Part shown: positions 27,288 through 52,828 of the stretch, piece by piece
How positions within the stretch are numbered: the stretch's first letter is position 1
Layout: the number at the start of each line of letters is the position of its first letter
Source of the DNA: a virus
Lineage: Duplodnaviria > Caudoviricetes
Direction: 5' to 3' (one strand)
DNA: 52,828 nt
IMG/VR virus record: IMGVR_UViG_3300021449_000498
Coordinates: 1 to 52,828 of that record
The notes under the pieces: generated by a model
What the model was told of the DNA's origin: nothing
The model's database searches: none
The model's input: the letters and a program-made list of their open reading frames with translations, nothing else
Translations under genes and position numbers: made by a program

Positions 27288-27327
27288 AAAGTTCCGGCAG
27301 CCCCGTTAGGGTATTCTATAATAAGAA
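27288..27327 (+). repeat. 40-nt dispersed repeat, copy A
   Basis: AAAGTTCCGGCAGCCCCGTTAGGGTATTCTATAATAAGAA; 33/40 identical to 52776-52815. Confidence 0.8.
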
Positions 27328-27382: not shown

Positions 27383-27404
27383 ACCTCTCGGTGTACTGGT
27401 TCGT

Positions 27405-27569: not shown

Positions 27570-27652
27570 GGGCGACAAGGGCGACAGCGCACCGAAAGTC
27601 TTTTTTGTCGGTCTTTCGTACACGCACCTGCGGCAAACCGAGGTAACAAACT

Positions 27653-32589: not shown

Positions 32590-32620
32590 AAAGTAAAAAG
32601 CTATCGGAAACTTTTTAATG
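32590..32620. promoter_or_regulatory. Back-to-back divergent BRE/TATA promoters (TFB gene and 32569 gene)
   Basis: Plus strand CGGAAACTTTTTAAT about 30 nt before ATG 32648; minus strand CCGATAGCTTTTTAC about 25 nt before ATG 32569. Confidence 0.65.
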
Positions 32621-32647
32621 CTTTCTCGTCTACTGAAAAATATACCT

Positions 32648-33574
32648 ATGGTTAAGACGTGTCCTGAATGTGAGGGCGGTACTATTAGGCAACCGTCAGG
32701 GGAACCCGAAGCGTTCTGCGAACAGTGTGGCTTCATTCCCGAAGACGGCCCGGACGTAGACTATGGCCCCGAGTGGCGAAGCTTTGACGAAGAGGACCGT
32801 CAGGTGCGGCGGCGAACGGGACCGGTGACGAACCGAACGCACTTGAACCGGGGGCACTATACCACGTTTAACGTTAACGAAGCGCGAAGCGAACAGCGCG
32901 CGCGGTTTTCGCGTATGCGGACCAAACAGCGGTGGGCCGAATCGTCGGAATACAAGCGCGCCCAACACACGGCCTACGGCGAAATGCGCCGCATGTGTTC
33001 GGCCCTGGGGCTTCCGAAATCCATTGCCGAACAGGCACACTCGTTATTTGATACGGTATATAACGATTTAGAAATGACCGGGCGAACTATCGAGGCTGTG
33101 GTTTCGGCCTGTATCTATACGACGTGTCGAATTAACACGTATCCGCGGACGTTCGAAGAAGTCGGGGAAGTGTGCCGCGTTGGGGCTGAAAAGACGAAAC
33201 ACATGTTCAAGGTTATCAATCGGGAAATGCGGCTTCCGCTTGCCCCGCCTACGCCGTTAGCCTATGTGGATAGGTTCGGCTCCGAAGCCGACCTGGACGA
33301 GGGCGAACGCCGAACCGCGCGAAATATTTTGAAATCGATTCCGCAGAAAGAATGGGCGTCGAAGAATCCGGCCGGGTTCGCGGCGGCGGCGGTCTACATG
33401 TCGGCGCTTCGGAGCAAGAAAGACGACCACCTTACACAGTCGGAATCGGCGGAAGTGGGCGGGGTTAGCACAGTGACGATACGGACGCAAATGCGGAAAA
33501 TGCGAGAATATGTCGGTTCTGCGGACCCTGCGGACGAAAACCCCCCGATAGAAGTGCCGATTGACCCGGCGTAA
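32648..33574 (+). CDS. tfb: Transcription initiation factor IIB (viral TFB)
   Basis: Zn ribbon CPEC...CEQCG, GPEWRSF B-reader, two cyclin repeats, HTH TQSESAEVGGVSTVTIR. Confidence 0.95.
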   Translation: MVKTCPECEGGTIRQPSGEPEAFCEQCGFIPEDGPDVDYGPEWRSFDEEDRQVRRRTGPVTNRTHLNRGHYTTFNVNEARSEQRARFSRMRTKQRWAESSEYKRAQHTAYGEMRRMCSALGLPKSIAEQAHSLFDTVYNDLEMTGRTIEAVVSACIYTTCRINTYPRTFEEVGEVCRVGAEKTKHMFKVINREMRLPLAPPTPLAYVDRFGSEADLDEGERRTARNILKSIPQKEWASKNPAGFAAAAVYMSALRSKKDDHLTQSESAEVGGVSTVTIRTQMRKMREYVGSADPADENPPIEVPIDPA

Positions 33575-33615
33575 GCGGCGTAAGTGTTTTGACTCGCCGG
33601 GTATTCCGGGGGTGT

Positions 33616-36387
33616 ATGGAATACTACGACCTGCAATACGGTCTCGATAGCGTAGATTCGGACCCGCTGTATATCGAGTTTCTGTGTAAAGACGAGAACG
33701 GCGAGAAGACGCGGAACCGCATGGATGCACCGTTCGCACCTTATTGCCTGATAGAACGCGGCGCTTTCGGAGAAATACCCTGGGGTTCGAACGCGTTTAA
33801 TAGCTTTCACGTATCGAAAGGTAGCTACGACACCGAAGTTCGCGACGAGACCCCGGACGGTTACGTTCGGTTGACCGCCGAACAGCCCGGAGACATAGGC
33901 GCGATTCGGCGCGCTATGGATGCTATTCGAGACGACCGCGAAGCCGCGCGGCGCGTAAGCGAGGATATAGAAGCCGGTGACGCCTCGAAGTGGCTTCCCG
34001 AGGCAATGGTCTCTGACGAATATATCGACGCCGAAAGGACCGCAGACGACCGCGACTCGAATTCTACCAACCTTCCCCCAGGCCGCGCGTACCTCAATTC
34101 CGAAACCACGACCGAAGCGAAGAACGAAGCCGAGAAAAATGCGGAAGAAAAGCTGGAGAAAACAGAAGAGCCGCCGCTTACCTATCAAGCCGACGTGCCC
34201 TACGGTCGTCGCGTCCTGATAGACGAAGGCTATCAACTGAATGTACCGGACCCTTCGGACGTGCTGTATTTCGACATTGAAGTTGACCCTTCGGGCGGGT
34301 TCCCCGAACCGGAAGACGCTACTGCGGACGTGCTTTCGGTAGCAGCCGTAGACGGCGAAGGGAACGAATTTTTCCTGAGTGGAACCGAGAGAGAAATCTT
34401 TGACGGTCTTGTAGGTGACCCTACGACCCACGACGACCGAATGGCCGAACCGGACCACGGCCTTCTTGCCGATTACTTCGTTCTCGTCGGATGGAACAGC
34501 GAAAGTTTCGACCTTCCGTACCTGAAAAATCGCATGGAGAACGCGGGGTATGGGCACAGTTGGCCTGGGTTCGACATTATCCATTTTGACGGCATGGGTC
34601 TCTATCGTTCATTCAAGCGGAAAAAGCAAGAAAGCTACGCGCTGGACGCTGTGGCAGAAAACGAAGTAGACGACTCGAAAGACATGGACGAAGACGAAAG
34701 TTACAAAAATCTTCGTCAGTGGGCGGACGAAGGGAACCCGCGGCTCAGGGAATACAATCTCCATGACGCGGTTCTGACGCGGAAGATAGCGGAGAAGTTT
34801 AGCCTTGTCGAGACGACCGCGCGGCTGTGCCGCCAGGGGTTTTCACGCATGGCGTCGATTACCTACGACAGCGGCGGCTATCCGCGCGTAGCAGTAGGCA
34901 AGCCGTGTGATTCGGTCATTCTTCGCGAAGCAAAGCGTCAGGGATTCGTCTTCGGCGACCGCGGACGGTACAAAGAGACCGGCGAATTCCCGGGTGGCTA
35001 CGTTTTCGAGCCGACGCCGGGTACTCATTCGTGGGTGTTCGTAGCAGACTTTTCGAGTATGTATCCGTCTATCATTCAGGCGCTTAATATCGGAGAAAAT
35101 ACCTGGATACCGAAACAAGGCGATATGACGCCCGAAGACGTAGACGGTATGATTCATGGGGTCAATCAGGTGTTTGACGCGGGGGACCGCGCGCGCGGCG
35201 GGTTCAAGCAACCGGCGGCGGACGGCGGCGAAGAAGGCGTTCTATCGACAGCGACGAGAAAGATTAGCACCCTCGCGGATGAGTACAAGGCGAAGCGAAA
35301 CGACTCGACACCGGGAACGCCCGAACACGAAGTCTATGCAACGATGTATGAGGGGCTAAAGACGGTCAAAAACAGTATGTATGGGGTGATTGCCTCGCCA
35401 CTACACCGCTACTACCTTCCGGGTATGAGCGAACACATTACCGAGACGGGGCAATTCCTGATTCGCGAATGTGAACGTTTTGTCTCCGACGACCTGGAGG
35501 ACGTAAGCCGCGTGGTCGGCGGTGACACGGATAGTGTGTTTATCGAGTTAGACGAAGACGACCCCGACGCGGACCCGGAAGCTATCGAAGACCGGTGTAA
35601 GGCCGTCACCGAGAAGCTAACAACCCACATTCAGGACTTGGTTCGAGAGGAAATGAACGCGGACGCTTCGCACCTGGAATTAGACGTGGATTATGTAGCG
35701 CGAAAATTCGTACAAACGGACAAGAAGAAAGCGTATGCCGCCCATATCGTTCGCGAGGACGGGAACCCGCAGGATGAAAACAAAATAGTAGGACTAAAGT
35801 GCAAAAAGTCGGATACGATGGACGCGGCGGCCGAATTACAGAAGTCACTCGTTGACGCACTACTGGCGGACGAGCCTACGGGAATGATAATCAAAGCGTA
35901 TAAACACGCGTTCTTTTCCGGGGCGAAAGATGAGAAAATAGTAAAACACAGTTCGCTCGGAAAGCGCCTAAGCTGTGGGTGTAGTGCCGGTGACGCTTCC
36001 GAAGCCGACTGCGAGTGTGACGTTTACAAGGGTAACACCGCCTCGAAACGCGCCGCAGAAATGTATAACTTGGCTATCGAGGCGGGCGCAATTACAGGCG
36101 TTAAACTCGGTCGGGGTGATAGTGTTAGTTACGTGAAATACGGCAAAGAACGCGAAAAGACGCTGCACCCTGAGATAATCCGCCGGGGTCTCGCGTTTCG
36201 AAAGGTAGACCCCGAAGGCGGGGCTGTTCATGGCGAGGACGTAGGCGACGTTACGACCGGAGAAAGCTTTTCGTGGACCCCCGGAAAGCGGCGCTACGTA
36301 TGGGGTAATTACATGGAGAAAGCTATCAGGCAAATCAATTTGGACCCGTCGGGAACGGAACAGGCCGGCTTAGGTGCTTTCATCTAA
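33616..36387 (+). CDS. polB: Family B DNA polymerase
   Basis: Exo motifs FDIE, GWNSESFD, YNLHD; pol motifs DFSSMYPS, KTVKNSMYG, GDTDS, KKAY; no intein seen. Confidence 0.96.
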   Translation: MEYYDLQYGLDSVDSDPLYIEFLCKDENGEKTRNRMDAPFAPYCLIERGAFGEIPWGSNAFNSFHVSKGSYDTEVRDETPDGYVRLTAEQPGDIGAIRRAMDAIRDDREAARRVSEDIEAGDASKWLPEAMVSDEYIDAERTADDRDSNSTNLPPGRAYLNSETTTEAKNEAEKNAEEKLEKTEEPPLTYQADVPYGRRVLIDEGYQLNVPDPSDVLYFDIEVDPSGGFPEPEDATADVLSVAAVDGEGNEFFLSGTEREIFDGLVGDPTTHDDRMAEPDHGLLADYFVLVGWNSESFDLPYLKNRMENAGYGHSWPGFDIIHFDGMGLYRSFKRKKQESYALDAVAENEVDDSKDMDEDESYKNLRQWADEGNPRLREYNLHDAVLTRKIAEKFSLVETTARLCRQGFSRMASITYDSGGYPRVAVGKPCDSVILREAKRQGFVFGDRGRYKETGEFPGGYVFEPTPGTHSWVFVADFSSMYPSIIQALNIGENTWIPKQGDMTPEDVDGMIHGVNQVFDAGDRARGGFKQPAADGGEEGVLSTATRKISTLADEYKAKRNDSTPGTPEHEVYATMYEGLKTVKNSMYGVIASPLHRYYLPGMSEHITETGQFLIRECERFVSDDLEDVSRVVGGDTDSVFIELDEDDPDADPEAIEDRCKAVTEKLTTHIQDLVREEMNADASHLELDVDYVARKFVQTDKKKAYAAHIVREDGNPQDENKIVGLKCKKSDTMDAAAELQKSLVDALLADEPTGMIIKAYKHAFFSGAKDEKIVKHSSLGKRLSCGCSAGDASEADCECDVYKGNTASKRAAEMYNLAIEAGAITGVKLGRGDSVSYVKYGKEREKTLHPEIIRRGLAFRKVDPEGGAVHGEDVGDVTTGESFSWTPGKRRYVWGNYMEKAIRQINLDPSGTEQAGLGAFI

Positions 36388-36784: not shown

Positions 36785-37002
36785 TGGAAGAAGACGCCGG
36801 CATTGCTATCGCGTTCGACGTGTTGGGGAACCTACTGCGGGAATGGGACGAGTTGGACGGAGAAGAACGCTACGGGCGGCTTTGCGCTGTCCGGGGCTAT
36901 CTTGTGGGCTTTTACGGTGACGAACTGTTGGAAGCGACCGACATTCCGGCGTCGTGGTCTCCCGGAGACGGTTCGAACGCAGGGGCGGAGACAAAACAAT
37001 GA
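36784..37002 (+). CDS. Hypothetical protein
   Basis: 72-aa acidic ORF; SD-like GGGGTGAGG; ATGA overlap with the ERCC4 gene. Confidence 0.65.
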   Translation: MEEDAGIAIAFDVLGNLLREWDELDGEERYGRLCAVRGYLVGFYGDELLEATDIPASWSPGDGSNAGAETKQ

Positions 37003-37700
37003 ATAGCTTAGGTGAGGAACCGTCGTCTTCGCCGCCGGCTAACGGGCGTTTGGTTGTGGATACCCGAGAACCCCCGGACGTGAAAAAACTGTCTAAGGAC
37101 GCGGCTATGGACCGAGAAATCGATTACACTACCGATAACCTTGGGGCCGGCGACTTCCTGACGGGTACGTATCTGGTAGAACGAAAGCGATACTCCGATT
37201 TCGTTGGTCGCCTTACGAGTCATGACGTAGATATTTGGACCCAGGTACGCGCGTTAGACGCGGCGGCCGAAGAACTGGGTCTCGTTCCCGTTCTGCTACT
37301 TGAAGGGGCGTGGGACAGTCGGAATCTGCGAGGGACGAGTGATAATGCAGTCTTTGGGGCGAAAGCGGCGATACACAAAATGGGTATTCGTCACTATCAC
37401 GCCCTCGATAAAGACGAAACCGCGTATGCTGTGGCAAAAATGGCCGAAATGTCCTCGTCTGACGCGAAAGCGCACAGCGTTCGGTCGTCGCCCTCGGTGC
37501 CGGAAGCCGACCGTCCGCAACACCTAATCGAGGGCTTGCCAAATGTCGGGCCGAAAACGGCGCGAACGTTACTCCGGCGGTTCGTAACTGCCCGCGGTGT
37601 CTTCAACGCTACCAAAGACGAACTACAAGAAGTGGACGGTGTAGGACCGAAGACGGCAGAGAACATAGATTCGGCGCTTATTGACGTGCAGCGTAGTTAA
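36999..37700 (+). CDS. ERCC4/XPF-family structure-specific nuclease with HhH domain
   Basis: VVDTREP, GDF, VERKRYSDF and LLEG motifs; two HhH motifs (LPNVGPKTA, VDGVGPKTA). Confidence 0.93.
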   Translation: MNSLGEEPSSSPPANGRLVVDTREPPDVKKLSKDAAMDREIDYTTDNLGAGDFLTGTYLVERKRYSDFVGRLTSHDVDIWTQVRALDAAAEELGLVPVLLLEGAWDSRNLRGTSDNAVFGAKAAIHKMGIRHYHALDKDETAYAVAKMAEMSSSDAKAHSVRSSPSVPEADRPQHLIEGLPNVGPKTARTLLRRFVTARGVFNATKDELQEVDGVGPKTAENIDSALIDVQRS

Positions 37701-38295: not shown

Positions 38296-38394
38296 CACGG
38301 AACGGTCTCGGTTTCTTTTTTACTCGTCTGTCCCCTGCGCAGTCACTACACACCGAAGCCGAAGGGTTTATACTTCTCCCGATAGTGGGTGTAA

Positions 38395-40302
38395 ATGAGG
38401 AAAGCGAAAATGTCCGAATACACCTACGCTCGAATCGAGGTTGACGACGACGGCGAGACAGTCGAAAAGCTTGCTATTGAACAAGCGCCGCGGGAAGCTA
38501 TAAAAAGCACCCACTGGGGAACGGTCCAATATCAGCCCGCATACGACGACGATTTCCCCGAAATAGATGAGTTTGCGTGGGCTGTCGCAATGACGGAAGA
38601 AAGTTTTGACGCCGTGGAACGCGCGCTAAACACGGTCATTCCCCCTGAGTACAAGGGGTGGGACGCGAACGGACAAGGCACCGTTACCCTCGAACGCGAC
38701 CCCGAACGCAATTGCTTCCGTGTGCAAGCGGACCATTACGGTGTCCGAACTGACGCCGAAACGCTGCTAAAACAAGCGTTTAGTTACGAGAATCCTGACG
38801 CCGATTTTGACCCTTCGGCGCGCCCGGTAAAGTACATCTATAGCAACGGTAGCGGCCCGCTTGGGCTAACCGAACGCGCGGCGGAGCACCTGGACGCCGA
38901 AGGGTTCACGGTCGAATTCGCCGGCCCCGAAGACGGCGCGAAGGGTGCGGACGTGTCCTCCGAACTGTCGTGGAACTTCGAACACAGCCTTCGGTACTAC
39001 CAGAACGAGGCCGTGACTGCGGCGCGCGAAGACGAACAGGGTGTGATTAGCCTACCCACCGGCACCGGGAAATCAGTCGCGGCGCTTCGGCTTATCGAAC
39101 GTCTCGGTCGTCGGGCTATCATCTTCGTCCACACGAAAGAACTGCTATACCAGTGGGCGGAGACTATCGAAGACGTTCTGGGTGTCGCGCCTGGGGTTAT
39201 CGGCGACGATGAATGGAGCGAAGGACCCGTGACGGTTGCTATCATGCAAAGCCTCACGTCCCGCGGGCTGGAGGGCGGCCCGGACGATGAGAACGAAGCA
39301 ATCGACCCGGCAAGCTACGGCGTTTCGATTTACGACGAAGCCCACCGGACCACTGCGGCGGAAACGTTTCACGCGGTCGGCAAGCTCTTTCCTTCTCACT
39401 GGCGAATCGGCCTCACCGCCACTGACTGGCGACGTGTTGAAGCCGAAAAGCTGTGGATAGAGGGTACGACCGGAGAACGGGTCTACCACCTGAGTCCCGA
39501 AGAGGCTGTTCGTCAGGGCTTCCTCGCGCGCCCCGTCTTCGAAACCCTCGAACACGACGGCCCCGAGCGCGATAATCAGGAACACTATCAAACGGCTTAC
39601 AAGCGGTGCATTGCCGAAAGCGAAGAGCGAAACCGCGCTATCGGCAAGCGCGCCGCGGAAATAGCCGAAACCGGTCGTCAGGTTATCGTTAACACGCGGT
39701 GGATTGACCCCGCGCGACACATTGCGGAATACGCCCGCGAGGCGGGGGCGGACGCAAAGGCGATTCACTCCGAATCGTCCGACCGGGACGAGGACCTGGA
39801 GGCCTTTTCCGACGGCGAAATCGACGTAGTGGCAAGCACGCTGCTAAAGGAGGGCGTGGACCTACCCGAAGTGAACGCGATTATCTTGGCGCACGGCGGC
39901 AAATCGTCGGTCGAAACCTTACAGACTATCGGGCGTGCGCTACGACCGTCCGGGGGGGACGATGCTTTAGTCGTTGACGTGAAAGATAACGGCTATACGT
40001 TCCACTCGGCGCACCGGGACCGCATGGAAACGATGGACGAATACTACGGCGCGTTCGGCCCCAACGGTGAGGCCACCGGCGAGGACATTATCGGAAACGG
40101 GCCGCTGGCTACTGACGGCGGCGAACCCGACGGCGAACCCGAGGGTGAGGAAATATGGAGTGACCTTTCGGATTCCGAGGCTGTCGAGTCCGCGGCGGAC
40201 CTGCTGGAGCATATGGGCGAGGGGTGGGCGGTCGCCGATAAACAGGAACAGCTCGAAGCCTTGGCGACCCGGCTTCGCGAGGTTGACCCCGGCGGCGACT
40301 GA
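38395..40302 (+). CDS. Superfamily 2 helicase (XPB/Rad25-like)
   Basis: LRYYQ Q-motif, PTGTGKS, DEAH, GLTAT, EGVDLP, QTIGRALR; TTTATA at 38367-38372. Confidence 0.93.
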   Translation: MRKAKMSEYTYARIEVDDDGETVEKLAIEQAPREAIKSTHWGTVQYQPAYDDDFPEIDEFAWAVAMTEESFDAVERALNTVIPPEYKGWDANGQGTVTLERDPERNCFRVQADHYGVRTDAETLLKQAFSYENPDADFDPSARPVKYIYSNGSGPLGLTERAAEHLDAEGFTVEFAGPEDGAKGADVSSELSWNFEHSLRYYQNEAVTAAREDEQGVISLPTGTGKSVAALRLIERLGRRAIIFVHTKELLYQWAETIEDVLGVAPGVIGDDEWSEGPVTVAIMQSLTSRGLEGGPDDENEAIDPASYGVSIYDEAHRTTAAETFHAVGKLFPSHWRIGLTATDWRRVEAEKLWIEGTTGERVYHLSPEEAVRQGFLARPVFETLEHDGPERDNQEHYQTAYKRCIAESEERNRAIGKRAAEIAETGRQVIVNTRWIDPARHIAEYAREAGADAKAIHSESSDRDEDLEAFSDGEIDVVASTLLKEGVDLPEVNAIILAHGGKSSVETLQTIGRALRPSGGDDALVVDVKDNGYTFHSAHRDRMETMDEYYGAFGPNGEATGEDIIGNGPLATDGGEPDGEPEGEEIWSDLSDSEAVESAADLLEHMGEGWAVADKQEQLEALATRLREVDPGGD

Positions 40303-41384: not shown

Positions 41385-41927
41385 ATGGACCTACCGGACC
41401 CTGAGAACGGCACCGGCGGCCTGAATACGACGTGTCGAGTCTGTCACGAAGAATTTCCTTCCGAACAGCGAATGAGGGGCCACTGTTTTTCCGAACACGG
41501 CCTACACCCTGAGCCGAAAGGGTGGGAATACGAACGGTCGCAAGAACTGGAAGACTCAGGATGGAAATGCCGGCGCTGTAATAACCCGTCCGCGTTGGTT
41601 GGCCGGTTACACGTCCATCATAGGATACCCAGAAAGTATTTCGAGAGCGAAGACGACAGCCACTTTTATGCGAACCTAAAAGCTTTGTGTGCGTCGTGTC
41701 ATGCCACAGTCGAGAACGTTTCCGACAGTTGCCCGTCACCTGACTGTTCGTTTTCGGTGTCCTCGTGCGGGCGCTTAGAAGTAGTCGTAGACGATTCGGT
41801 GAAATTAGAAGATTCGGAAAGCCCCCGGGTCAACCGGGCTATTTCCTACCGCTGTCCGCGCTGTGAACAGCCGTTTGATTTCCGTGAATGGGTCAATGAC
41901 GGCCTCAATGAGGTTGAAATCGCATGA
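41385..41927 (+). CDS. HNH endonuclease with C2H2 and Zn-ribbon modules
   Basis: CRVC...HCFSEH; CRRC...LHVHHRIP...NLKALCASCH. Confidence 0.85.
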   Translation: MDLPDPENGTGGLNTTCRVCHEEFPSEQRMRGHCFSEHGLHPEPKGWEYERSQELEDSGWKCRRCNNPSALVGRLHVHHRIPRKYFESEDDSHFYANLKALCASCHATVENVSDSCPSPDCSFSVSSCGRLEVVVDDSVKLEDSESPRVNRAISYRCPRCEQPFDFREWVNDGLNEVEIA

Positions 41928-42079
41928 ACGGCCCCGCCGTCACCGACGAACCTGGAGTACACTTATGGACCTGCGGGCGCTGTGGCGACAGTTTCAACGC
42001 GCGAACCATACCGGAAATGGTCAAAGAGCGCAACGACCACGCGCGCGAACGGCACCCCAAAGCGTGGCTGAATATGTGA
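41924..42079 (+). CDS. 51-aa C2H2-type zinc-finger microprotein
   Basis: Hand translation MNGPAVTDEPGVHLWTCGRCGDSFNARTIPEMVKERNDHARERHPKAWLNM; ATGA overlap and SD-like GAGGT. Confidence 0.75.
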   Translation: MNGPAVTDEPGVHLWTCGRCGDSFNARTIPEMVKERNDHARERHPKAWLNM

Positions 42080-42136
42080 AATCGCGGCGGCGTTTGCGGC
42101 TTTTGTTTTAGTATCAAAGTGGGTATAAAAGTAGGT

Positions 42137-42814
42137 ATGCCCTCTTCCGAACCCGTAGACGGACGCTGTGGATATGACTTAGACACCCAAGACGGTTTTT
42201 GTGAGAATCTACCCAACCCCGACAGTGAGAACGATTTGTGTGCCGCTCACGCGGAGCATATGCCGGAAGCGTCGAAAGGCGGGGCACCCGAGGGAAACCA
42301 ACGCGCGACCCGTCACGGCCTATATGCCGACCGTGAGAAGTACATGCAGAACTTCGAGGGTATCGACATGGAGTTTATCGAGGCAATGCAGAACGACTTA
42401 GCGGAACGCTACGAACGGATTCACGGACGAGAACCGGATATGTTTAGCCGCGAAGTCCTGCGGAATATCGCTATCGACTTAGAGCAAATTCCCGCCGCCT
42501 ACCGCTATCTGAAAAAAGAGACCTGGGTCCAACGCGAAGAACGCCTGGAAGAAGGCACCCTGTTCGTAGACGACGTGCCCAACATCCTGTTAGAAAGCGT
42601 TCGCAAACAAAACGAAAGCGTCATTAAACGCATGAAAGACCTGGGTATGCTACAAGACCCCGAAACGAAGAAGGCAGACGCGCTAAAGGGCAAATCCGTC
42701 GGTGAGATTTGGGACGAAAGCGGCGAAGGCGAAGGCGACATCATAGACCTGGAGTTTGCTGATTTCGACGTAGCGGACGAAGGCGACGAAGGCGACGAGA
42801 ACAAATCGGGATAA
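42137..42814 (+). CDS. terS: Terminase small subunit
   Basis: GGAPEGNQRATRHGLY motif after a C-C-C-H module; directly upstream of TerL. Confidence 0.8.
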   Translation: MPSSEPVDGRCGYDLDTQDGFCENLPNPDSENDLCAAHAEHMPEASKGGAPEGNQRATRHGLYADREKYMQNFEGIDMEFIEAMQNDLAERYERIHGREPDMFSREVLRNIAIDLEQIPAAYRYLKKETWVQREERLEEGTLFVDDVPNILLESVRKQNESVIKRMKDLGMLQDPETKKADALKGKSVGEIWDESGEGEGDIIDLEFADFDVADEGDEGDENKSG

Positions 42815-42826
42815 TCGGTTTCGAGT

Positions 42827-44311
42827 ATGGTTACTAAAGAACAGCTACCCTCTTCAACGCAAGTAGTCGAACGCATACACGAACAGCGTGGCGACGACAT
42901 ACAATTAGACCCCCACAGTCAGGACGCGGCGGACTTCCTTAGAAATCTGCGAAAGCTTCCTCGTTCACAGCGCGTAAAAATCCTGTTCGGTGCGGACCCG
43001 CATGACTATCAGGACTTAATGCTGGACGTTAATCTCTGGCGCGACCAAACGCGCTGTGTAGCCCCTATCGGCCGGCGCGGCGGCAAGACCTACACCGGCG
43101 GCCTGATAATCGCAGACTCGCCGCTTGCCCCTGCTATTGCCGAAGACACCGTGGTCGCTGCACCCTACCAACGAACCGCGGACGAAATGTTTACCGAAGC
43201 AATGGAGTGGTATGAGAAAAGCCCGTGGCCCGAATTCTTCGGTCTCGAAACAAACGAATTCTTCGGAATCGAAGTCGATAACGCCCGGACCTACGAATTC
43301 GATACGGGTGCCCGGGTAATGTCTCGAACGACCGGCAAGAAAGGCAAACAAATCAGGGGTATCGGCCCCCAGGTCATGGTTGTAGACGAAGCCGCGTTCG
43401 TCAACCAAAGAAAAATCTACACCGAAGTTATCGAACCGTTCTTTGCGACGTTCACGACCGAGGGGCAACGGTCGGAATTCTACCTGTATAGTACCACGAA
43501 CGGGCAATCCGGGTACTTCTACGAGAAGTGGATTGCCGCCTCGGAAGACGCCGAAAGCAAGTGGTTCGGGTTCCACTGGCCCTCGTACATCAACCCCATG
43601 ATTAGCGACGAGTGGCTTGATGGAAAGCGCGCCGAACTTGATAGTATTTCCTTCGCCAAGGAGTATCTGGCCGAATTCAAAGACGAAGGCAACGTGTTTA
43701 TTCCACATTCCGACGCGAAGAAATGCCAACCGCGGACGGTCGGCGAGACGTTTGGATTGACCCCGCCTATCTATGCCGGTCTCGACGTAGCGCGCGGCGG
43801 CGGCGACCTTACAGCGTTGGTCTTAGTAGACGAAACCGGGCGGGTAGAAGTCTTCGATACGTTTAGCGAGAACAGCATACCTGAAATCGTCGGACTTATG
43901 CGCCGCGTGAACGACGAACGGGGCTACGGCAATCCGCAGTCTATCGAGGAAATCTACGTCGAAAGCAACGGTGTCGGCGGCGGCGCTGTGGATTTCGGCG
44001 CGGAATACGACATCTACAATATCGGCGAAATCAAGTCTTCAACCCAAACGAAACACGAATTCTATAGCAACCTCAAACGGCGTATTGAAGAACAGTCGCT
44101 TACGCTTCCGTATGACAAGACACTAATGGGGCAACTGACGGACCTGGACTACACCCATACACCGAACGGGTATCTGAAAGTTAGTCACCGGGACCCCAAG
44201 CGGGGCGACGACCTACCGGACGCTTTAGCGTTGGCTTGCTATGCAGCAGGTGGGTACGCACCTACTTCGCGACCGTATAACACGTCGAGTTATCAGCCCG
44301 TAATCGGTTAG
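42827..44311 (+). CDS. terL: Terminase large subunit
   Basis: Walker A GRRGGKT, Walker B VVDEAAF, STT coupling motif; nuclease GLDVARGGGD and DDLPDALAL. Confidence 0.95.
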   Translation: MVTKEQLPSSTQVVERIHEQRGDDIQLDPHSQDAADFLRNLRKLPRSQRVKILFGADPHDYQDLMLDVNLWRDQTRCVAPIGRRGGKTYTGGLIIADSPLAPAIAEDTVVAAPYQRTADEMFTEAMEWYEKSPWPEFFGLETNEFFGIEVDNARTYEFDTGARVMSRTTGKKGKQIRGIGPQVMVVDEAAFVNQRKIYTEVIEPFFATFTTEGQRSEFYLYSTTNGQSGYFYEKWIAASEDAESKWFGFHWPSYINPMISDEWLDGKRAELDSISFAKEYLAEFKDEGNVFIPHSDAKKCQPRTVGETFGLTPPIYAGLDVARGGGDLTALVLVDETGRVEVFDTFSENSIPEIVGLMRRVNDERGYGNPQSIEEIYVESNGVGGGAVDFGAEYDIYNIGEIKSSTQTKHEFYSNLKRRIEEQSLTLPYDKTLMGQLTDLDYTHTPNGYLKVSHRDPKRGDDLPDALALACYAAGGYAPTSRPYNTSSYQPVIG

Positions 44312-45219
44312 TCGGAAGCGCGCGGCGCTTCCGGGGGTTCCGGTGGGTCGTATAGCAGTATGTCTTCCCCCCGCCACGTTTCCGGCGGGCAATCCGGCCC
44401 CGAATACGTCCGGTCGGAAAACTGTTCCTGCGGCGCGAAGTCTTCAGATTCGGGGCGTGGTAGCGTTTCGTCCCATTTATAATGAAACCCCGGCGGCGGC
44501 TCTCCCATATAATTTAGCAGTTCTTGTGTTTCTTCTACTGAAAACCACGCCCCACCCCTGGGGGTAATAGTAGGGGAAAACCCCACATTTTCAAACATGT
44601 TTTTCATTTTTTCAAGATTTTGTTTTTCATTTTCAAATACTATCGCAGCATGTGGTTTTTCTCTTTCTTTCACGATTAAGTTACCATCTCCCGCAAACCA
44701 ATGTTTAATAACAACCGGATTTAATTTGATAGTATTAGGGAAAGTGCGCTGTCCAGTTTCATACCAGTGTTTATACATTATTTTAAATAAGGGAGTTTTA
44801 AGTGTTTTAAAACGATATATGTCACTGTAGTTCTTTTCTTTTGCCTGGGGGGAAAACCCCGTCTTTCTTGCGTGTTTAGCGGATTCTTTAGCTGTTTTAC
44901 TAAAACGGACACCTTTTCCTACGACTGGATAAAAAAGTCTTTCTAAAAAAAGTAAATAAGCTTTAGACTTTGAATACATGTTAACTGTCATATTAAACCT
45001 GTTTCTCCCCACGTTTCCGTCACCCAAAAGTAAGCCTGTGGCTAAATCTATTTGAAAGTTAGACATTTTTGGATAATTGCAGGTTTTCAACCAGTGGAAC
45101 CCGAATTTCTCAAAACGTTTTCCACAAACCGGACACGGCGACCGTCCATCATCTTCGTCTTGTTCGGCTTCGAACTGTTCGCTTCCAAGCGTAGCCTGAA
45201 AACGGTTTTCAGCAGACAT
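44308..45219 (-). CDS. Free-standing LAGLIDADG-type homing endonuclease
   Basis: ATGLLLGDG and KHWFAGDG helices; N-terminal CPVCG; AT-rich core. Confidence 0.88.
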   Translation of the reverse strand: MSAENRFQATLGSEQFEAEQDEDDGRSPCPVCGKRFEKFGFHWLKTCNYPKMSNFQIDLATGLLLGDGNVGRNRFNMTVNMYSKSKAYLLFLERLFYPVVGKGVRFSKTAKESAKHARKTGFSPQAKEKNYSDIYRFKTLKTPLFKIMYKHWYETGQRTFPNTIKLNPVVIKHWFAGDGNLIVKEREKPHAAIVFENEKQNLEKMKNMFENVGFSPTITPRGGAWFSVEETQELLNYMGEPPPGFHYKWDETLPRPESEDFAPQEQFSDRTYSGPDCPPETWRGEDILLYDPPEPPEAPRASD

Positions 45220-45306: not shown

Positions 45307-47139
45307 ATGGACCTTACGGATGAAATTCGCGGCGTCTACGATACTACCCGCGCGGCTCTCGCGCGCGACAGCGAAGTCTTAGGCGGAGACCCGATTCCAC
45401 AAACCATTAGCGGCAATGGCGGCCTTGGCGGTATGTTAAGCGGCTCCGGGCAAGTGCGGCGGATTCGCCCGGACAAGAACCAAACCCGTCTCTATCGCGA
45501 AATATACCGCCATAATCCGTATGTGAACGCCGGCATTGACCTGCGGGCCGGCGAAGTAGTGCGCCCGGGGCCGCGAATCACAAGCGACGATGAGAAGCTT
45601 ACCGAAGCCCTCGAAACCTGGAGCGAACAATGCACCATTTACGCGGGCGAGTACGACCAACCACTGACACCGCAACTGTGGAACGACGCCCGCGGCTTCG
45701 ATATGGACGGCACCGTGACGCTTGAACACATGTATGACGACCCTGCGGAACCTGCTACCTTTTCGGGCTTTCAGACAGTCGATTCGCTCACACTCGATAT
45801 GCTATGCTACCCGAATACCTCGCGTCTGATTCGCCCCGGAGACAGCAGCGGCCGGGTGCCGAAAGAAACGCCGAAGAATGCGCGCGGGCAATGGGCGGCC
45901 TACGTCCAAAACCTCGGGGGCGGGGCGAGCGAAGTGCAGCGCCGCAAAGCGCAATCGTCCCAACGGACCCGAGACGTAGCTTCGGGCAACCGAAGCGAAA
46001 CTGGGGCCGGCAAGCCTACGGAACCGGACGGGACCGTACCCCTTTCCCAGGATGATGTTACGAAAATGGTGCGCAATCCTATGCTGGATACGCCGCTTAC
46101 GAGCGGAAACAGTAACCGCGGAAGTGGAAAAGCCGGTCAAACCCGGGGGGTTTCCCTCATTGAACCCATTTCCTCCGAAGCTATCCGGGTCCAAAATCGT
46201 AAAGACGACCACAACGCCGTCTTACAGAACCTCGCGTACCCGCGCGTGGTCGTGAAATTCAATCAGGTAGAATTGCCGACGGGGGATACCCTGCAATGGG
46301 AAACGAACCAAATGCAGGCGTTTATCAAGACCCTCCGACAGCGAGGAACGGGACGCGACGGGTCCGAATCGTGGCGCGAAAGCCGGCGTGAGGAAAGCAA
46401 AGAAGCCGACAGCTACGGTGAGGACAGCAGTACGGACTATTCGGGCACGAATACCGAAGCGCCCGAATTCAACAGCCCCGGCGGTATCCTCGGTGCGCCG
46501 CCGGGTGTCGAAATCGAGTGGTACACCCCCGACCTTCCCGACATCAACCCAAGTATCCAAATGTCAATCAATACTATCTTCTCGGGAATGAACGTGCCCA
46601 AGGCCTACGTCGGTTTCGGTGACGACCTGAATCGAGACGTAACCGAACCGCGCGTAGAACAGTTCGACCGCGACGTGCGGCGAATCCGCAGTCATATTAG
46701 CTATTCCTACACCCAAATCTTCCGCAAAAAAGCGCGATACCTGTTGGACCGCGGCGTGGTCGCCGGCCCCGAACCGGGAAGCGAAGCCTACGACAGCCTC
46801 ATCGAAAGCGTCGAATTTGCTATCGAGTCCGACGACGATGTAAGTCCGCTACAAGATTCGGACTTCGATGCTAAGAAGTTCTTAGCCTATATGCAGGCCT
46901 GGAAGGTCTACGTTTCGTCGGGCGTGGACGCCTACCTTCCGCCGGAACGTCTGATTGAGAAGGATTTGGGCATGGAAACGTCGGAGCTTGAAGAAGAGTT
47001 AGAAAACGCGTCTGAAATCTTCCAAAATGCCGACGGCGGGCTGAATATGGAAGAAACCGGCGCGCCCCAGGGCGGTGGCACTCCGGTTTCCGACCGAGTG
47101 GACGGAAGCCAGCGCGAGGATGAAAACCAAAACGACTAA
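45307..47139 (+). CDS. Portal protein
   Basis: 610 aa after TerL; YRHNPYVNAGID, RGVSLIEPI and SGMNVPKAYVG portal-like motifs. Confidence 0.82.
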   Translation: MDLTDEIRGVYDTTRAALARDSEVLGGDPIPQTISGNGGLGGMLSGSGQVRRIRPDKNQTRLYREIYRHNPYVNAGIDLRAGEVVRPGPRITSDDEKLTEALETWSEQCTIYAGEYDQPLTPQLWNDARGFDMDGTVTLEHMYDDPAEPATFSGFQTVDSLTLDMLCYPNTSRLIRPGDSSGRVPKETPKNARGQWAAYVQNLGGGASEVQRRKAQSSQRTRDVASGNRSETGAGKPTEPDGTVPLSQDDVTKMVRNPMLDTPLTSGNSNRGSGKAGQTRGVSLIEPISSEAIRVQNRKDDHNAVLQNLAYPRVVVKFNQVELPTGDTLQWETNQMQAFIKTLRQRGTGRDGSESWRESRREESKEADSYGEDSSTDYSGTNTEAPEFNSPGGILGAPPGVEIEWYTPDLPDINPSIQMSINTIFSGMNVPKAYVGFGDDLNRDVTEPRVEQFDRDVRRIRSHISYSYTQIFRKKARYLLDRGVVAGPEPGSEAYDSLIESVEFAIESDDDVSPLQDSDFDAKKFLAYMQAWKVYVSSGVDAYLPPERLIEKDLGMETSELEEELENASEIFQNADGGLNMEETGAPQGGGTPVSDRVDGSQREDENQND

Positions 47140-47297: not shown

Positions 47298-47354
47298 ATC
47301 AGAAGCGACGCCGGAGCGAAAGCTTTTTTACACGCGACCCAGTTAGGTAGAAAT

Positions 47355-47450
47355 GCCGCTGCGTGTGATACCACGCGGTCGGCTCCGCGGGCTTGGTTAC
47401 CCCGCGTCACCTCCTTCACAGGGTCGTAAGGCCTGGGAGTGGGAATCGGC
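47355..47450 (+). ncRNA. Candidate structured small RNA 3 (multi-stem, GNRA loop, anti-SD-like tract)
   Basis: Promoter GCGAAAGCTTTTTTA at 47316-47330; stems GCGTG/CACGC, CGCGGG/CCCGCG, CTCC..CAGG-GTAA-CCTG..GGAG; pyrimidine-rich tail. Confidence 0.55.
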
Positions 47451-47531
47451 GCTTTCCTCGTCGGTTCTCGCTTCCGCGCGCTTCGTGCAAACTCCTAACA
47501 CTTATATTCAGTAGACGCGGCACCGGTTTCT

Positions 47532-48787: not shown

Positions 48788-49927
48788 ATGGCTTCCGACG
48801 ACTACCGCCCGCTTTACGGTATCGCAAACGTTTTCGGCGTTTCTCACGAACCTGACGGCACCCTCGTTGCACTCGTGGACGAAAAAGTTCCTGAGAGCGA
48901 ACTACACGACCACGATGTCATAGCGACCGCTATCGAGGACGTGACGCGCGCGTTCGGAATTTTCCCACCCGACGAGTCCGACGTAGTGGAAGTCGGTCAA
49001 CCTTCGATTCACGATGAGGGCGCGTCGTGGTCCCCTGGCCTGGAGGAAACCGTAGCGGACCCAACCCCCGCCCAACATAGAAAGCGGCGGCGGCCGCCGC
49101 GGGCCGGCCTAAGCGAAATCAACGTAGACGGAACCGCCGCGACCGCCGGGACGCTTGCCGTAGACGACGACAGCGGCGAACGCGTTCGAGTCTCGAATCA
49201 GCACGTCTATGGCCTCGCAGGCCGGGCGGCTTCGGGGAGCGCAATCGTGCAGCCTTCGCCTATCGACACCGGCGAAGCGCCTGCGGACAAAGTAGGCGAA
49301 TACATCCGCGGCATTACAATGGTAGACGGCACCAAAGCCGACGCCGCAATTCGGTCGCTCACTGACGCCGAACGACAGCAAGCCCCAAAGGCAGAGACGA
49401 TTTACGGCCTCGGGACTATTTCACAAGTTCGCCGAACGTATTCGAAAATGAACGGCGTCGAACTGGCAAAAAGCGGCCGAACGACCGGCGTCAGTCGAAA
49501 CGCAGTGAAAGCTACGCAGGCGAACATCCGGGTGCGCTACGGAAAAGACCGAATAGTCGAACGAAAAGACGTTCTCGTGTTAGACCCCATGTCCCGCGGC
49601 GGCGATAGCGGAAGCCCGCTTGTTCGCGAACTGTCTGACGAGTCCGCGAATAGCACCCTGGAGTTAGTTGGGCACGTTTTCGCCGGGTCGAAACGCGCTA
49701 CAATCGCAGACAAAGCGAAAAACATCGAAGACGAATTGAACGTCACGTTTCTTCTGTTCGAAGAACCAGAACCCGACGAGCCGCCGCGGGACGAGCCGCC
49801 GCGCGAAACCCCCGACGAACCGGGCAAAAAAATGAGCCTACAAGACGCGCTCATTGCCGTCCTAAAAGAACTGGCGACGCTATTACAGGCACTTACGCTT
49901 TACATCGAACGGTCGAATCGGGAATAA
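48788..49927 (+). CDS. Trypsin-like (S1/PA clan) serine protease
   Basis: TAGTL, SNQHV (His), ADAAI (Asp), KSGRTTG, GGDSGSP (Ser), LVGHVFAG. Confidence 0.9.
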   Translation: MASDDYRPLYGIANVFGVSHEPDGTLVALVDEKVPESELHDHDVIATAIEDVTRAFGIFPPDESDVVEVGQPSIHDEGASWSPGLEETVADPTPAQHRKRRRPPRAGLSEINVDGTAATAGTLAVDDDSGERVRVSNQHVYGLAGRAASGSAIVQPSPIDTGEAPADKVGEYIRGITMVDGTKADAAIRSLTDAERQQAPKAETIYGLGTISQVRRTYSKMNGVELAKSGRTTGVSRNAVKATQANIRVRYGKDRIVERKDVLVLDPMSRGGDSGSPLVRELSDESANSTLELVGHVFAGSKRATIADKAKNIEDELNVTFLLFEEPEPDEPPRDEPPRETPDEPGKKMSLQDALIAVLKELATLLQALTLYIERSNRE

Positions 49928-49930: not shown

Positions 49931-50872
49931 ATGTCCGTAGCCAGTGGCGACCCAAGTAATACGAAAACGCTTCGCGAACGCCAGTATCGTCCCGACCTTA
50001 CCACCCGATTCGACGCTGTGGTTCGTGTCCTTCGGGAAACAATCGGCAGAAACGACGCCCTCGGTCTAAACGAATCGGACTTGTCGGACTTATCAGCCTC
50101 ACTGGCGGAATACGACCCGGAGAAATTCAAGCCGGCGGACCACTTTAGCGGCGGCGACTTAGCGCGTCGCGACGCGTTTGTGAATCGTCTCGACTATTGG
50201 CTGTCCGAAGGCGTACTGGAACAAATGGACCCGCAGGACATAAACGTAGGCAAGCACTTTACCGGAAAATACGTTCGTGCAGCGGCGTCTAAAGGCGAAG
50301 GATTCGCTGTAAGCCAATTAGAACAAGACGGCATAGATGTCCCCCGAACGGGCGACGAAGCCGTAGCAAGCGCGTTAGACCGTCCTGTAAGAGTGCAGCT
50401 ACTAAGCCGTCTCTATCAACGGAACTACGACTACCTGGAAGGCATTACGTCGGACGTATCCGACGACATTGCCGACGAACTGGCAAAGGGGGCCTTCCGC
50501 GGCGAAAATCCGCTCGAAGTCGCCGCGAAACTAAACGGGCGGGTGAAAGGTATCGGACGCTGGAGAGCCGAAGTTCTCGCGAGGACCGAAACGCTATACG
50601 CTCATAACTCGACAGCCGTAGAAGTCTACGACCAATGGTATGACAAAGACCGAGAATTGGGCTATAGTATCGAAGGTTCGAATAGCAACCCGAACGCCGC
50701 GGGAAGCGAACAAATGGAACACATTACCGCGGGCGATAGCCGAGTATGTGCCGAATGTCGGGCCTTAGAAGGCCGAACCATGACTATTCGCGAAGTCAAA
50801 AACAACCCAGGCGAGTACATGCCGCCGGTGTGTACCCACGCTCAATGTCGTTGTACTGTCGTTTTGGCGTAA
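49931..50872 (+). CDS. Head morphogenesis protein (SPP1 gp7/MuF family)
   Basis: RAEVLARTETLYAHN, DSRVCAECRALEG and PPVCTHAQCRCTV motifs. Confidence 0.92.
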   Translation: MSVASGDPSNTKTLRERQYRPDLTTRFDAVVRVLRETIGRNDALGLNESDLSDLSASLAEYDPEKFKPADHFSGGDLARRDAFVNRLDYWLSEGVLEQMDPQDINVGKHFTGKYVRAAASKGEGFAVSQLEQDGIDVPRTGDEAVASALDRPVRVQLLSRLYQRNYDYLEGITSDVSDDIADELAKGAFRGENPLEVAAKLNGRVKGIGRWRAEVLARTETLYAHNSTAVEVYDQWYDKDRELGYSIEGSNSNPNAAGSEQMEHITAGDSRVCAECRALEGRTMTIREVKNNPGEYMPPVCTHAQCRCTVVLA

Positions 50873-51254: not shown

Positions 51255-51319
51255 ACACCTGTGAAACAGGTGGGAATAAATAAACCTTCTGGCTCGTCTT
51301 TGGGGCCGCTTTTCGCGCT

Positions 51320-52582
51320 TTAGCGCGAGAAGAACGAATGATTACTCAGGTGAGCCAAAAACTCGTCGCGTGCTTCATAATCCGGGCGAGTCTCGGTGAC
51401 ACCGCCCGCAGGACCGCCGCGGTAGTACGCACCGTTGAAGTCTAACGTCTCGCTATCGATTTCGACCGGCACCGACACAGCCTCATCGTTGCTTACATCC
51501 AGCACGAAGAGGGCGAGAAGGTCGCCCTCGAATTCGAACCCGTCCGCGAACTGCGGAAGGAACCACCCGCCGACCATACCAAGATGTTCCCCCGCTACGT
51601 CCGTCTCGTCGCCCCGGTCGATTTCCGACAAGTCCGAATCGAGGCGGGCACTACCCGACGTAATCGCATACCAGTGTAGGGCTTCGCTCTTGTCCCGCGG
51701 TTCCGACCCCTCGCCGCCAAGAACGCACCGGTGGGAAAAGCCGCGCGGTTCGGTGCGCTTCGAGCCGTCCGAACCGTCACCCAGAGCCGCCTCGCGCGCC
51801 GTGCGGGGTACACCATTTGGCATACCCAGGTCGGGGTCCGAACCGACGTTTCGCATAACGATTTCATCCGAACTGTGCTTCTTTCCGACCTGATTGCCAC
51901 TCGGGGCTAAGTCCGAATCCTCGATAACCGTCTTCCGGCCGGATTCATCGTCTTGGGACATGACTGCGGGCGAAGCGTGCGGTCCCGAAGCCAGCATATC
52001 CGAATCGATGATTTTCACCGTGCCTTCTTCTTTGTGCCACACACAGCGCGAAAACTTCCCCTGACGGCGCTTCAAGCCTACGTCACCGTCCGAAATAGAA
52101 ACACAGTTCCGAACCTCGCCCGAAGCAAGTCGCATGTTAGCCGTGTTGTTATTGCGGAAGTACGAATCTTCGAAATAAATATCTGCGCCGCCCGACGGTT
52201 TCGAAGAATGGCCGGGCGCGCTTGCATAAACGCAGTTATCCACCCAATTTTGCCCGTTGATGTTGCGGAACGTAACCGTCCCCTGAGTCTGCCGGCCAAC
52301 GAAGACGAGCGTGTTGTGATAGCCCGGAATACAGCCGTCCGCCCCGTAGACGTTTTCGAGAACAGCGTCTCCCGTGGTTTTGATGCTAATAACTTGTTCT
52401 TTGCCTTCGTGGGAATTCCGGCCTTTCACGCCGATATTTTTGACGTGCGGGCTGTGCCCCCGAATGTCGAGATTGTAGTGCGACCCAGGCGCGCTAATGT
52501 CGATAAGTAGGCCCTCGTCATAGGTGCCGCCCTCGATTCGCTTGCCGCGGGTCTCGCCAGGTGGGACAGTTACGGTCTCCAT
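51320..52582 (-). CDS. Right-handed parallel beta-helix (pectin lyase-like) protein
   Basis: Likely start METVTVPPG at 52582; Asn-ladder-like strands (VKNIG, LENVY, FRNIN, FEDSYFRNN, VRNC, IIDS, IEDS). Confidence 0.7.
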   Translation of the reverse strand: METVTVPPGETRGKRIEGGTYDEGLLIDISAPGSHYNLDIRGHSPHVKNIGVKGRNSHEGKEQVISIKTTGDAVLENVYGADGCIPGYHNTLVFVGRQTQGTVTFRNINGQNWVDNCVYASAPGHSSKPSGGADIYFEDSYFRNNNTANMRLASGEVRNCVSISDGDVGLKRRQGKFSRCVWHKEEGTVKIIDSDMLASGPHASPAVMSQDDESGRKTVIEDSDLAPSGNQVGKKHSSDEIVMRNVGSDPDLGMPNGVPRTAREAALGDGSDGSKRTEPRGFSHRCVLGGEGSEPRDKSEALHWYAITSGSARLDSDLSEIDRGDETDVAGEHLGMVGGWFLPQFADGFEFEGDLLALFVLDVSNDEAVSVPVEIDSETLDFNGAYYRGGPAGGVTETRPDYEARDEFLAHLSNHSFFSR

Positions 52583-52602
52583 ACTGCGTACTTTCTCGGT
52601 CC

Positions 52603-52749
52603 CGCTTGAATTGTTTTCGGGTTCGGTTTCGCCCCGCGAAACCGGGGGAAATCCGGGCAATGTATCAGATTGCCCGCATACGTGTGCGCCCCCACGGGGG
52701 CTTCTCACCGAACTATCGGATATGCGAAACGTCGGGAACAATTCGGGCG
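52603..52749 (+). ncRNA. Candidate structured RNA 4 (or structured ssDNA origin)
   Basis: 17-bp closing helix 52603-52619 with 52733-52749 (four G-U pairs, no mismatch) enclosing several hairpins. Confidence 0.55.
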
Positions 52750-52775
52750 TCTTAGCGGCTCTAAACGAAAAGTCG

Positions 52776-52815
52776 AAAGTATCGGCAACCCCGTCGGGGT
52801 ATTCTATTAGAAGAA
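52776..52815 (+). repeat. 40-nt dispersed repeat, copy B
   Basis: AAAGTATCGGCAACCCCGTCGGGGTATTCTATTAGAAGAA; 33/40 identical to 27288-27327. Confidence 0.8.
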
Positions 52816-52828
52816 GGGGAAACCGGGG

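Follow-up and report, generated by a model that had tools for sequence, protein, structure and literature searches.

A G-U-rich folded element in a divergent intergenic region of an uncultured haloarchaeal tailed virus is a candidate for RNA-level or DNA-level control

How archaeal tailed viruses control their genes has hardly been mapped. In the Halobacterium virus phiH, a haloarchaeal tailed virus, a divergent control region gives rise to a non-coding antisense RNA directed against the 5' end of another transcript (Stolt and Zillig 1993, cited in the excerpted text of PMC6210493), and in haloviruses of the HF1/HF2 group repeated AT-rich intergenic sequences between transcription units carry promoter elements, according to the accessible part of PMC7230728. 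HFTV1 is the sole haloarchaeal tailed virus with a transcript map, and the available portion of PMC12542753 describes its antisense and internal transcripts as frequent. Here, we analyzed a 147-nt non-coding element at positions 52603 to 52749 of the IMG/VR record IMGVR_UViG_3300021449_000498, which has 52,828 bases and is referred to as a whole as the window. The virus is far from the isolates, possesses a TFB-like gene, and carries two strand-biased folded non-coding elements, this one included. The element lies in a divergent intergenic region that is truncated by the end of the record (246 nt are visible) and begins 20 nt upstream of the ATG (52582) of a beta-helix protein gene on the opposite strand. 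A 26-nt spacer separates it from repeat copy B, and the record stops 79 nt past the element.

The element belongs to no described family, and by type it counts among viral non-coding control elements. Its role may be at the RNA level or at the DNA level, and we regard it as a good candidate and not as a discovery. If transcribed rightward, it would be placed against the beta-helix promoter region much as the phiH RNA is placed in the excerpted description; however, the phiH RNA comes from mapped transcripts, whereas the element is known here from sequence alone, lies upstream of the start codon rather than over the coding 5' end, and shows no sequence relation to phiH (blastn of 51300 to 52828 against phage records gave no match). 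The HF1/HF2 repeats, as far as they are described in that partial text, are alike in kind to a repeat family of the present virus (copies A, B, and C), in which a GC hairpin is combined with an AT-rich box, TATTCTAT(T/A)A; the three copies are all in the + orientation, contigs of the public runs break there, and the copies may act as promoters. In contrast, the 147-nt element is single-copy and not AT-rich, and only its neighbor is a member of the repeat family. The element shares an end-paired multi-helix junction and a competing helix with structured leaders and riboswitches closed by a P1 helix, but we can point to no conserved junction, ligand pocket, or expression platform in it, the best Rfam E value is 8.8, and the downstream gene lies beyond the record.

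The minimum-free-energy (MFE) fold of the + strand RNA comprises 57 pairs (32 G-C, 18 A-U, and 7 G-U) without any mismatch and is closed by a long-range helix of 18 uninterrupted pairs, 5 of them G-U, between 52603 to 52620 and 52732 to 52749. A previous sequence-only reading of this DNA had described 17 pairs with four G-U pairs and no mismatch, which is correct for arms that begin at 52603 and 52733 and falls one G-U pair short of the full helix. All ten motifs that it quoted lie where it had placed them, including CGGGCAAT/ATTGCCCG (52654/52669), GCCCC/GGGGC (52688/52697, with GCCCC also at 52631), GTTCGGT/ACCGAAC (52621/52707), and CGGTTTCGC/GCGAAACCG (52624/52636). Pair probabilities of the closing helix are near 1, and the helix is kept in folds of 246 or 379 nt and lost in a 529-nt context. 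Three of the inner hairpins are palindromes (H1, 9+3+9; H2, 8+7+8; H4, 5+4+5; Table 1), and the two arms, compared as DNA, agree at 13 of 18 positions. With respect to alternative pairings, ACCGAAC at 52707 to 52713, within the branched arm H5, is the partner of GTTCGGT at 52621 to 52627, and the 5' strand of H1 can alternatively pair with a second GCGAAAC at 52724 to 52730. A fold forced to contain GTTCGGT/ACCGAAC reaches -70.3 kcal/mol versus -71.2 kcal/mol for the MFE fold. Thus, the mutually exclusive folds previously suggested do exist at similar energy, although the alternative helix has a pair probability of about 0.036 and accounts for only about 3.6% of the ensemble.

We evaluated the fold on both strands, as the sequence-only reading had proposed, and could confirm that the structure is present, that it exceeds chance, and that it fits + strand RNA better. 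None of 200 shuffled sequences folded as well as the + strand RNA (z -5.31), whereas 3 of 200 did so for the - strand RNA (-57.4 kcal/mol, z -2.56). In a genome-wide scan of 2108 segments of 147 nt (step 25) with energies corrected for G+C, the segment at 52601 had the lowest + strand energy of all, with a residual z of -3.4 (-4.4 for the exact element). The hairpins fold on both strands, as seen in the interior from 52621 to 52731 (z -3.33 on + and -2.21 on -), and it is the closing helix that provides the + strand excess: its five non-Watson-Crick positions are all G-U on the + strand and hence A.C on the - strand. With DNA energy parameters, the whole element gives -37.0 kcal/mol (z -3.44) for the + strand and -36.6 kcal/mol (z -3.83) for the - strand. 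Because the asymmetry vanishes under these parameters, the extra + strand stability derives from G-U pairs, which are counted in RNA. In this respect, the strand argument that had been offered for a single-strand origin failed, and that part of the earlier interpretation loses its main support, whereas the structure and the alternative fold hold. The difference of 13.8 kcal/mol between the strands is ordinary for this genome (z -1.8). Besides, the 18-pair helix ties as the longest uninterrupted helix on either strand of the genome (span of at most 220 nt), and - strand helices reach at most 17 pairs (one case, and five of 16 pairs), all within coding sequence. Since the genome also yields other helices of 16 to 18 pairs, the closing helix taken alone is only at the edge of chance.

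A natural variant was available as one 248-nt contig (run X3), which covers 52613 to 52828 and thereby 137 nt of the element, with five substitutions inside the element. Three of them (52708 C>T, 52737 A>G, and 52738 A>G) change Watson-Crick pairs into G-U pairs on the + strand and would be mismatches on the - strand or in duplex DNA; of the other two, 52648 G>A falls on an unpaired loop base, and 52661 T>C disrupts the pair that closes the loop of H2. The closing helix of the variant is still fully paired as + strand RNA. These changes fit a + strand RNA and are suggestive, without being significant. The substitution load is 5 in 137 nt of the element versus 4 in 177 nt at the 3' end of the beta-helix gene, and the spacer behind the element (52750 to 52775) carries eight substitutions and two indels. 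In our own comparison, the changed spacer is identical, as far as the two overlap, to the 30 letters that precede the third repeat copy in a contig of run X2. Because the variant spacer matches the flank of the third copy, it looks as if sequence has been exchanged between repeat copies in the neighborhood of the element rather than drifting freely.

In addition to the element itself, we found a second folded element of 156 nt on the + strand (47345 to 47500), non-coding and located between two small zinc-finger open reading frames (ORFs). Its energy is -71.3 kcal/mol, with z -3.90 on the + strand and -0.22 on the - strand, and it contains the only other 18-pair helix of the genome (47434 to 47451 with 47459 to 47476; six G-U pairs, + strand). 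It sits just behind AAAGCTTTTTTACA (about 47318 to 47333), which we read as a canonical promoter, and no similar DNA was found in three related virus records (G001 to G003). For a stand-alone small RNA, this second element is a stronger candidate than the one at 52603 to 52749. Since this second G-U-rich element is located behind a promoter-like box, structured + strand RNAs are plausible for the virus, which probably makes such RNAs.

The reading that we prefer, with a probability of roughly 0.35, is that the element represents a structured RNA domain, transcribed from the + strand, in the control region. The analysis shows the fold, the statistical excess, the better fit as + strand RNA than as - strand RNA or DNA, and the tolerance of natural variation, and we infer the production of the RNA, its start and end, and every functional step. 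A + strand RNA is favored because all seven non-Watson-Crick pairs and three of the four stem changes of the variant fit that strand, because the asymmetry is specific to RNA energies, and because the second element lies behind a promoter; the frequency of antisense transcripts in HFTV1, as stated in the part of PMC12542753 referred to above, also supports it. In the mechanism that we envisage, a rightward transcript would cross the start of the leftward beta-helix gene and fold into a compact domain closed by the G-U-rich helix and bearing four to five short hairpins. Since the beta-helix promoter region is complementary to the 5' arm, this transcript would traverse the promoter in antisense and might damp it. 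The folded domain, in turn, could act as a stable, nuclease-resistant RNA end or as a leader for the following unit (repeat B and genes beyond the record), and two folds within 1 kcal/mol of each other would leave room for two-state behavior. If the RNA is real, it would give a first handle on RNA-based control of an accessory cassette in this virus group. A much more extended proposal is highly doubtful, namely, that a lineage-specific two-state + strand RNA across the divergent control region silences an opposite-strand accessory cassette (the beta-helix gene and a gene for a small hydrophobic protein) and acts as a leader for the next late unit, as one of at least two G-U-rich + strand RNAs in a haloarchaeal tailed virus group that is new at the family level and has its own TFB-like factor.

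Several observations weigh against a + strand RNA. The + strand from 52560 to 52602 contains no TTTATA-type box and no canonical box of the B recognition element (BRE)/TATA kind before the element, and the nearest A/T-rich boxes on that strand (52435 to 52443 and 52495) are inside the beta-helix gene. Without a + strand box 25 to 30 nt before 52603, the position at which an independent archaeal small RNA gene would carry its own BRE/TATA box, transcription would have to arise inside the beta-helix gene in antisense. If, on the other hand, repeat B is a rightward promoter, the element would lie upstream of both start sites. No RNA run is listed as containing 52300 to 52828, and the three runs listed consist of DNA contigs. 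The shape, a ring of short, perfect, bulge-free palindromic hairpins, is atypical of evolved RNAs, and the interior folds on both strands. Furthermore, the + strand pair is kept at three of the four stem transitions of the variant versus two of four expected, the adjacent changes at 52737 and 52738 may represent one event, and the single variant contig shows three one-sided changes and no double-sided change; neither a homologue of the element nor a pair changed on both sides was obtained in the searches made. Finally, the preferred strand of such long helices is not stable in the virus group, because it flips between two copies of a comparable module in the relative G002.

G002 is a complete related virus of 63,920 bases whose portal is 54% identical. 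Its region from the MuF-like gene to the head genes (about 11.5 kb) has the same layout, with a cassette of opposite-strand ORFs, a divergent gap, and main-strand genes. The gap holds a module closed by an inverted repeat, with z values of -6.90 and -4.06 for its two strands, and the module (about 200 nt) occurs in two direct copies 4 kb apart (L011:7340-7600 and 3390-3650). As with our element, it is placed in a divergent gap next to the first opposite-strand cassette gene, and it combines a 17-pair long-range helix bearing transition mismatches with inner hairpins, followed by a GC hairpin and an AT-rich box. However, the two share no detectable sequence or covariance-model similarity, the cassette genes differ (G002 is without a beta-helix gene), and the G002 module is duplicated, with a preferred strand that differs between the copies. 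When the two copies were compared, a 10-pair hairpin had changed on both sides at three pairs and stayed Watson-Crick, implying that hairpins are kept as hairpins in these regions; the 17-pair closing helix, read on the same strand, has two A.C pairs in one copy and two G.T pairs in the other. Upstream of the second copy (L011:3600-3720), there is a row of operator-like palindromes containing GCGCAC.

The promoter geometry bears on all readings of the element. We compared by eye the 60 nt before 38 gene starts and found a TTTATA-type box at about -32 to -23 in 10 of them, including the small gene at 51254; this is the position expected for leaderless haloarchaeal genes. The beta-helix gene has CGAAAA CAATTCAAG at -37 to -23, which is the complement of the 5' arm, and carries AATTCAAG where the 10 other gene starts carry the TTTATA-type box. 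With respect to the overlap with a likely beta-helix promoter claimed in the sequence-only reading, the 5' arm covers the position at which a leaderless promoter would be expected, and a canonical box is lacking there. Further upstream, the - strand has a single TATA-like box, TTTAGA at 52765 to 52760, which would give a leader of about 155 nt.

A possible, if somewhat unlikely, alternative to the + strand RNA is a control region acting at the DNA level, in which the palindromes and the outward-facing copies of the arms would be protein-binding sites or upstream elements for the divergent promoters of the beta-helix gene and repeat B, the RNA fold being a by-product. It accords with the location between divergent units, with the 5' arm at exactly -21 to -38 of the beta-helix ATG, and with the similar folding of both DNA strands, and the non-canonical box of the beta-helix gene makes help from an upstream activator plausible. 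The flip of strand preference between the G002 copies and the GCGCAC palindrome arrays in the equivalent G002 region point in the same direction. So does a parallel to H1: together with AACCC, it is matched at 28 of 30 positions in one Halobacteria genome (G333, contig 3, L023:1500-1530; E 8.2e-6 per genome, 401 genomes). In that genome, a UvrD/REP helicase gene begins with a leaderless ATG 42 nt past the end of the hairpin, and its TTATAC box (-30 to -25) lies just behind the hairpin; H1 in the window ends 41 nt before the beta-helix ATG. This parallel is a single case, and we take it as a lead toward a promoter-upstream DNA element; a 25-mer of H1 with up to three mismatches was found in only 2 of the 401 genomes (reversed control, 0). 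The DNA-level account fits less well with the palindromes, which are all mutually different, and with the arms, whose agreement as DNA drops to 11 of 18 positions in the variant. Nor is the arm core GAACAATTC enriched elsewhere as a repeated operator would be (20 matches with at most one mismatch versus 13.3 ± 3.7 expected). If the sites do act as DNA, the element marks the switch region of the variable segment.

It is unlikely that the element has no function of its own and is a hitch-hiking product of the turnover of intergenic repeats and palindromes, either through repeat recombination or through an insertion resembling a miniature transposon. In favor of this, the element occurs in this virus line alone, with no counterpart in the complete relative G002, and it is located in a variable segment of about 11 kb between the MuF-like gene and the head genes; in addition, the length of the helix is only at the edge of the chance distribution, and the match between the variant flank and that of the third copy indicates that repeats in this neighborhood exchange sequence. 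Against such an origin stand the z value of -5.3 and the first rank in the genome, the low number of changes in the variant-covered part relative to the 3' end of the beta-helix gene, the lack of a visible target-site duplication at the arms, and the single-copy state in the window, with no additional copy among the searched Halobacteria genomes.

Quite unlikely is a leader on the - strand, in which the beta-helix mRNA would start from the distal TTTAGA and carry a 5' untranslated region of about 155 nt whose hairpins control translation or stability. This accords with the lack of a canonical box at the leaderless position, TTTAGA being the sole upstream - strand TATA-like box, with the above-chance folding of the - strand (both the element and its interior) and with the G002 module next to the first opposite-strand cassette gene, which folds best on the strand of that gene (-6.90 versus -4.06). 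However, a start near 52737 would omit most of the 3' arm, so that the closing helix could not form; besides, the helix on the - strand has five A.C mismatches (seven in the variant), and three of the four stem substitutions break - strand pairs.

Single-strand initiation signals of bacterial phages and plasmids include hairpin clusters of about the size of the element, and the element is intergenic and contains GAAAC with a G run behind it, which we take to resemble part of archaeal origin-recognition boxes; nevertheless, a replication element (a single-strand initiation site or an origin) is most improbable, in view of the lack of strand preference as DNA, a G+C content of 58.5% with neither an AT-rich unwinding stretch nor a repeated box within the visible 246 nt, the lack of matches to a rolling-circle Rep, to a primase, or to Orc1/Cdc6, whose gene usually adjoins archaeal origins, in the 36 window ORFs scanned against Pfam and/or PHROGs, and the presence of a family B polymerase and a helicase, which are typical of double-strand replication.

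Database searches placed the element in no known family. Rfam 15 gave no match at gathering score in the whole window, so that the Infernal check previously proposed returned no family for the element; with permissive filters over 52450 to 52828, only RF01453 appeared (10.6 bits versus a gathering score of 80). ARAGORN predicted no tRNA or tmRNA gene in the window. A covariance model of the element (R1) matched only the element itself in the window, indicating a single copy, and gave no match in G001 to G003 and no significant match in 157 Halobacteria genomes (4 + 151 + 2); the best E values among the 151 genomes (0.175, 0.301, and 0.936, in 3 of 151) and the value of 1.73 at the site of the H1 match in G333 are at chance level. 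By BLAST, 50 of 401 Halobacteria genomes had pieces at E of at most 0.1, with about 40 expected; one stands out, and there was no multi-copy signal. We also found no match for 52583 to 52828 among plasmid records by blastn, and none in IMG/VR for exact patterns taken from H1, H2, and repeat B. Searches with proteins gave nothing for the beta-helix protein or its alignments in viral contigs, nothing for the MuF-like protein in viral contigs, and nothing for the portal alignment in genome contigs. The portal alignment retrieved G001 to G003 from viral contigs, and these have neither the beta-helix gene nor DNA similarity to the region; the beta-helix alignment retrieved only two loci from metagenome contigs, at 27 to 28% identity and in an unrelated co-directional context.

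The element is unlikely to be coding. A - strand frame without stops crosses it and reaches the record end; however, a 51%-identity homologue starts at the same residue as the 420-residue protein, the variant sites fall on codon positions 1, 3, 1, 2, and 1 of that frame, so that third positions are not favored, and the translations of five ORFs across the region gave no Pfam match and a best PHROGs E value of only 0.27. A miniature inverted-repeat transposable element was rejected (arms agreeing at 13 of 18 positions, no target-site duplication at the flanks, and one copy in the window), as was an attachment or packaging site, since no integrase was matched in the scanned ORFs and the packaging genes, namely, those for the HNH endonuclease and the small and large terminases (41385 to 44311), lie 8 to 11 kb upstream.

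Table 1. Positions of the element, its structural parts, and other annotated features of the window
Feature	Positions	Strand	Remark
147-nt element	52603..52749	+	57-pair multibranch fold with a long-range closing helix
5' arm of closing helix	52603..52620	+	Pair probability 0.7-1.0; - strand reads CGAAAA CAATTCAA, BRE/TATA-like, -37 to -24 of beta-helix ATG (putative promoter position)
Hairpin H1	52624..52644	+	9 perfect pairs, loop CCC
Hairpin H2	52654..52676	+	CGGGCAAT/ATTGCCCG, 7-8 pairs, 7-nt loop; pair probability 0.98-1.0
Hairpin H3	52676..52687	+	4 pairs, one G-U
Hairpin H4	52688..52701	+	GCCCC/GGGGC, 5 pairs
Branched arm H5	52703..52727	+	Core CCGA/UCGG at 52708-52719
3' arm of closing helix	52732..52749	+	Holds variant A>G sites 52737 and 52738
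Repeat copy B	52776..52828	+	GC hairpin ACCCCGTCGGGGT, then AT-rich box TATTCTATTAGAAG, to record end
Repeat copy A	27288..27327	+	Within a 550-nt gap flanked by two + strand genes
Beta-helix protein gene, 420 aa	51320..52582	-	51%-identity homologue, 420 aa, same start residue
Small hydrophobic protein gene, 110 aa	50922..51254	-	Canonical box GGTTTATTTATT at -30 to -23; predicted membrane protein, from sequence only
Major head protein	2544-3407	+	Family scan
Tape measure	9694-14394	+	Family scan
Cas4-like exonuclease ORF	30731-31597	+	Family scan
TFIIB/TFB-like protein	32618-33574	+	TFIIB repeat E 4e-27; zinc ribbon below Pfam cut-off
Family B DNA polymerase	33589-36387	+	Family scan
ERCC4-type nuclease	36954-37700	+	Family scan
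Helicase	38395-40302	+	Family scan
HNH endonuclease	41385-41927	+	Family scan
Small terminase	42119-42814	+	Family scan
Large terminase	42827-44311	+	Family scan
LAGLIDADG endonuclease	44308-45219	-	Family scan; between large terminase and portal
Portal	45307-47139	+	Family scan
Protease	48788-49927	+	Family scan
MuF-like protein	49931-50872	+	Family scan

The sequence is present as contigs in three DNA runs of one halite-metagenome study, and the portal is only 22.8% and 20.6% identical to those of the nearest isolates, ChaoS9 and HGTV-1, respectively, which indicates an uncultured haloarchaeal tailed virus distant from the studied ones. Nearly all of its genes are on the + strand (Table 1). 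The product of the gene adjacent to the element had no Pfam or PHROG match; an NCBI protein at 30% identity to this product bears the name right-handed parallel beta-helix protein. The TFB-like protein could steer the host polymerase to virus-specific promoters, for example, those putatively represented by repeats A, B, and C. The record is labeled as a provirus with an estimated completeness of 81%. This label looks doubtful, because no integrase was matched among the scanned ORFs, because the gene order runs from the window end to its start as in the complete G002, and because a recorded contig of 61,345 nt contains an identical portal sequence.

Repeat copy B, at 52776 to 52815, is 83% identical to copy A, and the element does precede it, as had been noted in the sequence-only reading. 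A 7421-nt contig (run X1) carries the window end at one end and a repeat copy with two differences at the other; hence, the genome extends at least 7.3 kb past the window to the third repeat copy. For this reason, the further statement that the element precedes the head operon is only loosely right, in agreement with the MuF-to-head distance in G002.

Other features of the window are recorded here as minor observations. The strongest - strand fold lies at 24701 to 24847, continues to about 25100, and is within a + strand gene of 1097 residues (-74.4 kcal/mol, z -4.22, with an 11-pair GC hairpin). The 550-nt gap at 27103 to 27652 contains four copies of a box in which GCCGAAG is followed by a T-rich run, one of them being GCCGAAGATTTTTAAATA, and these look like stacked promoters. 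Besides, a 38-nt block comprising a promoter and a start (TTTATAC, CCGATAGTGGGT, and TAAATG) is common to 8251 to 8288 on the - strand and 38360 to 38397 on the + strand, with 82% identity.

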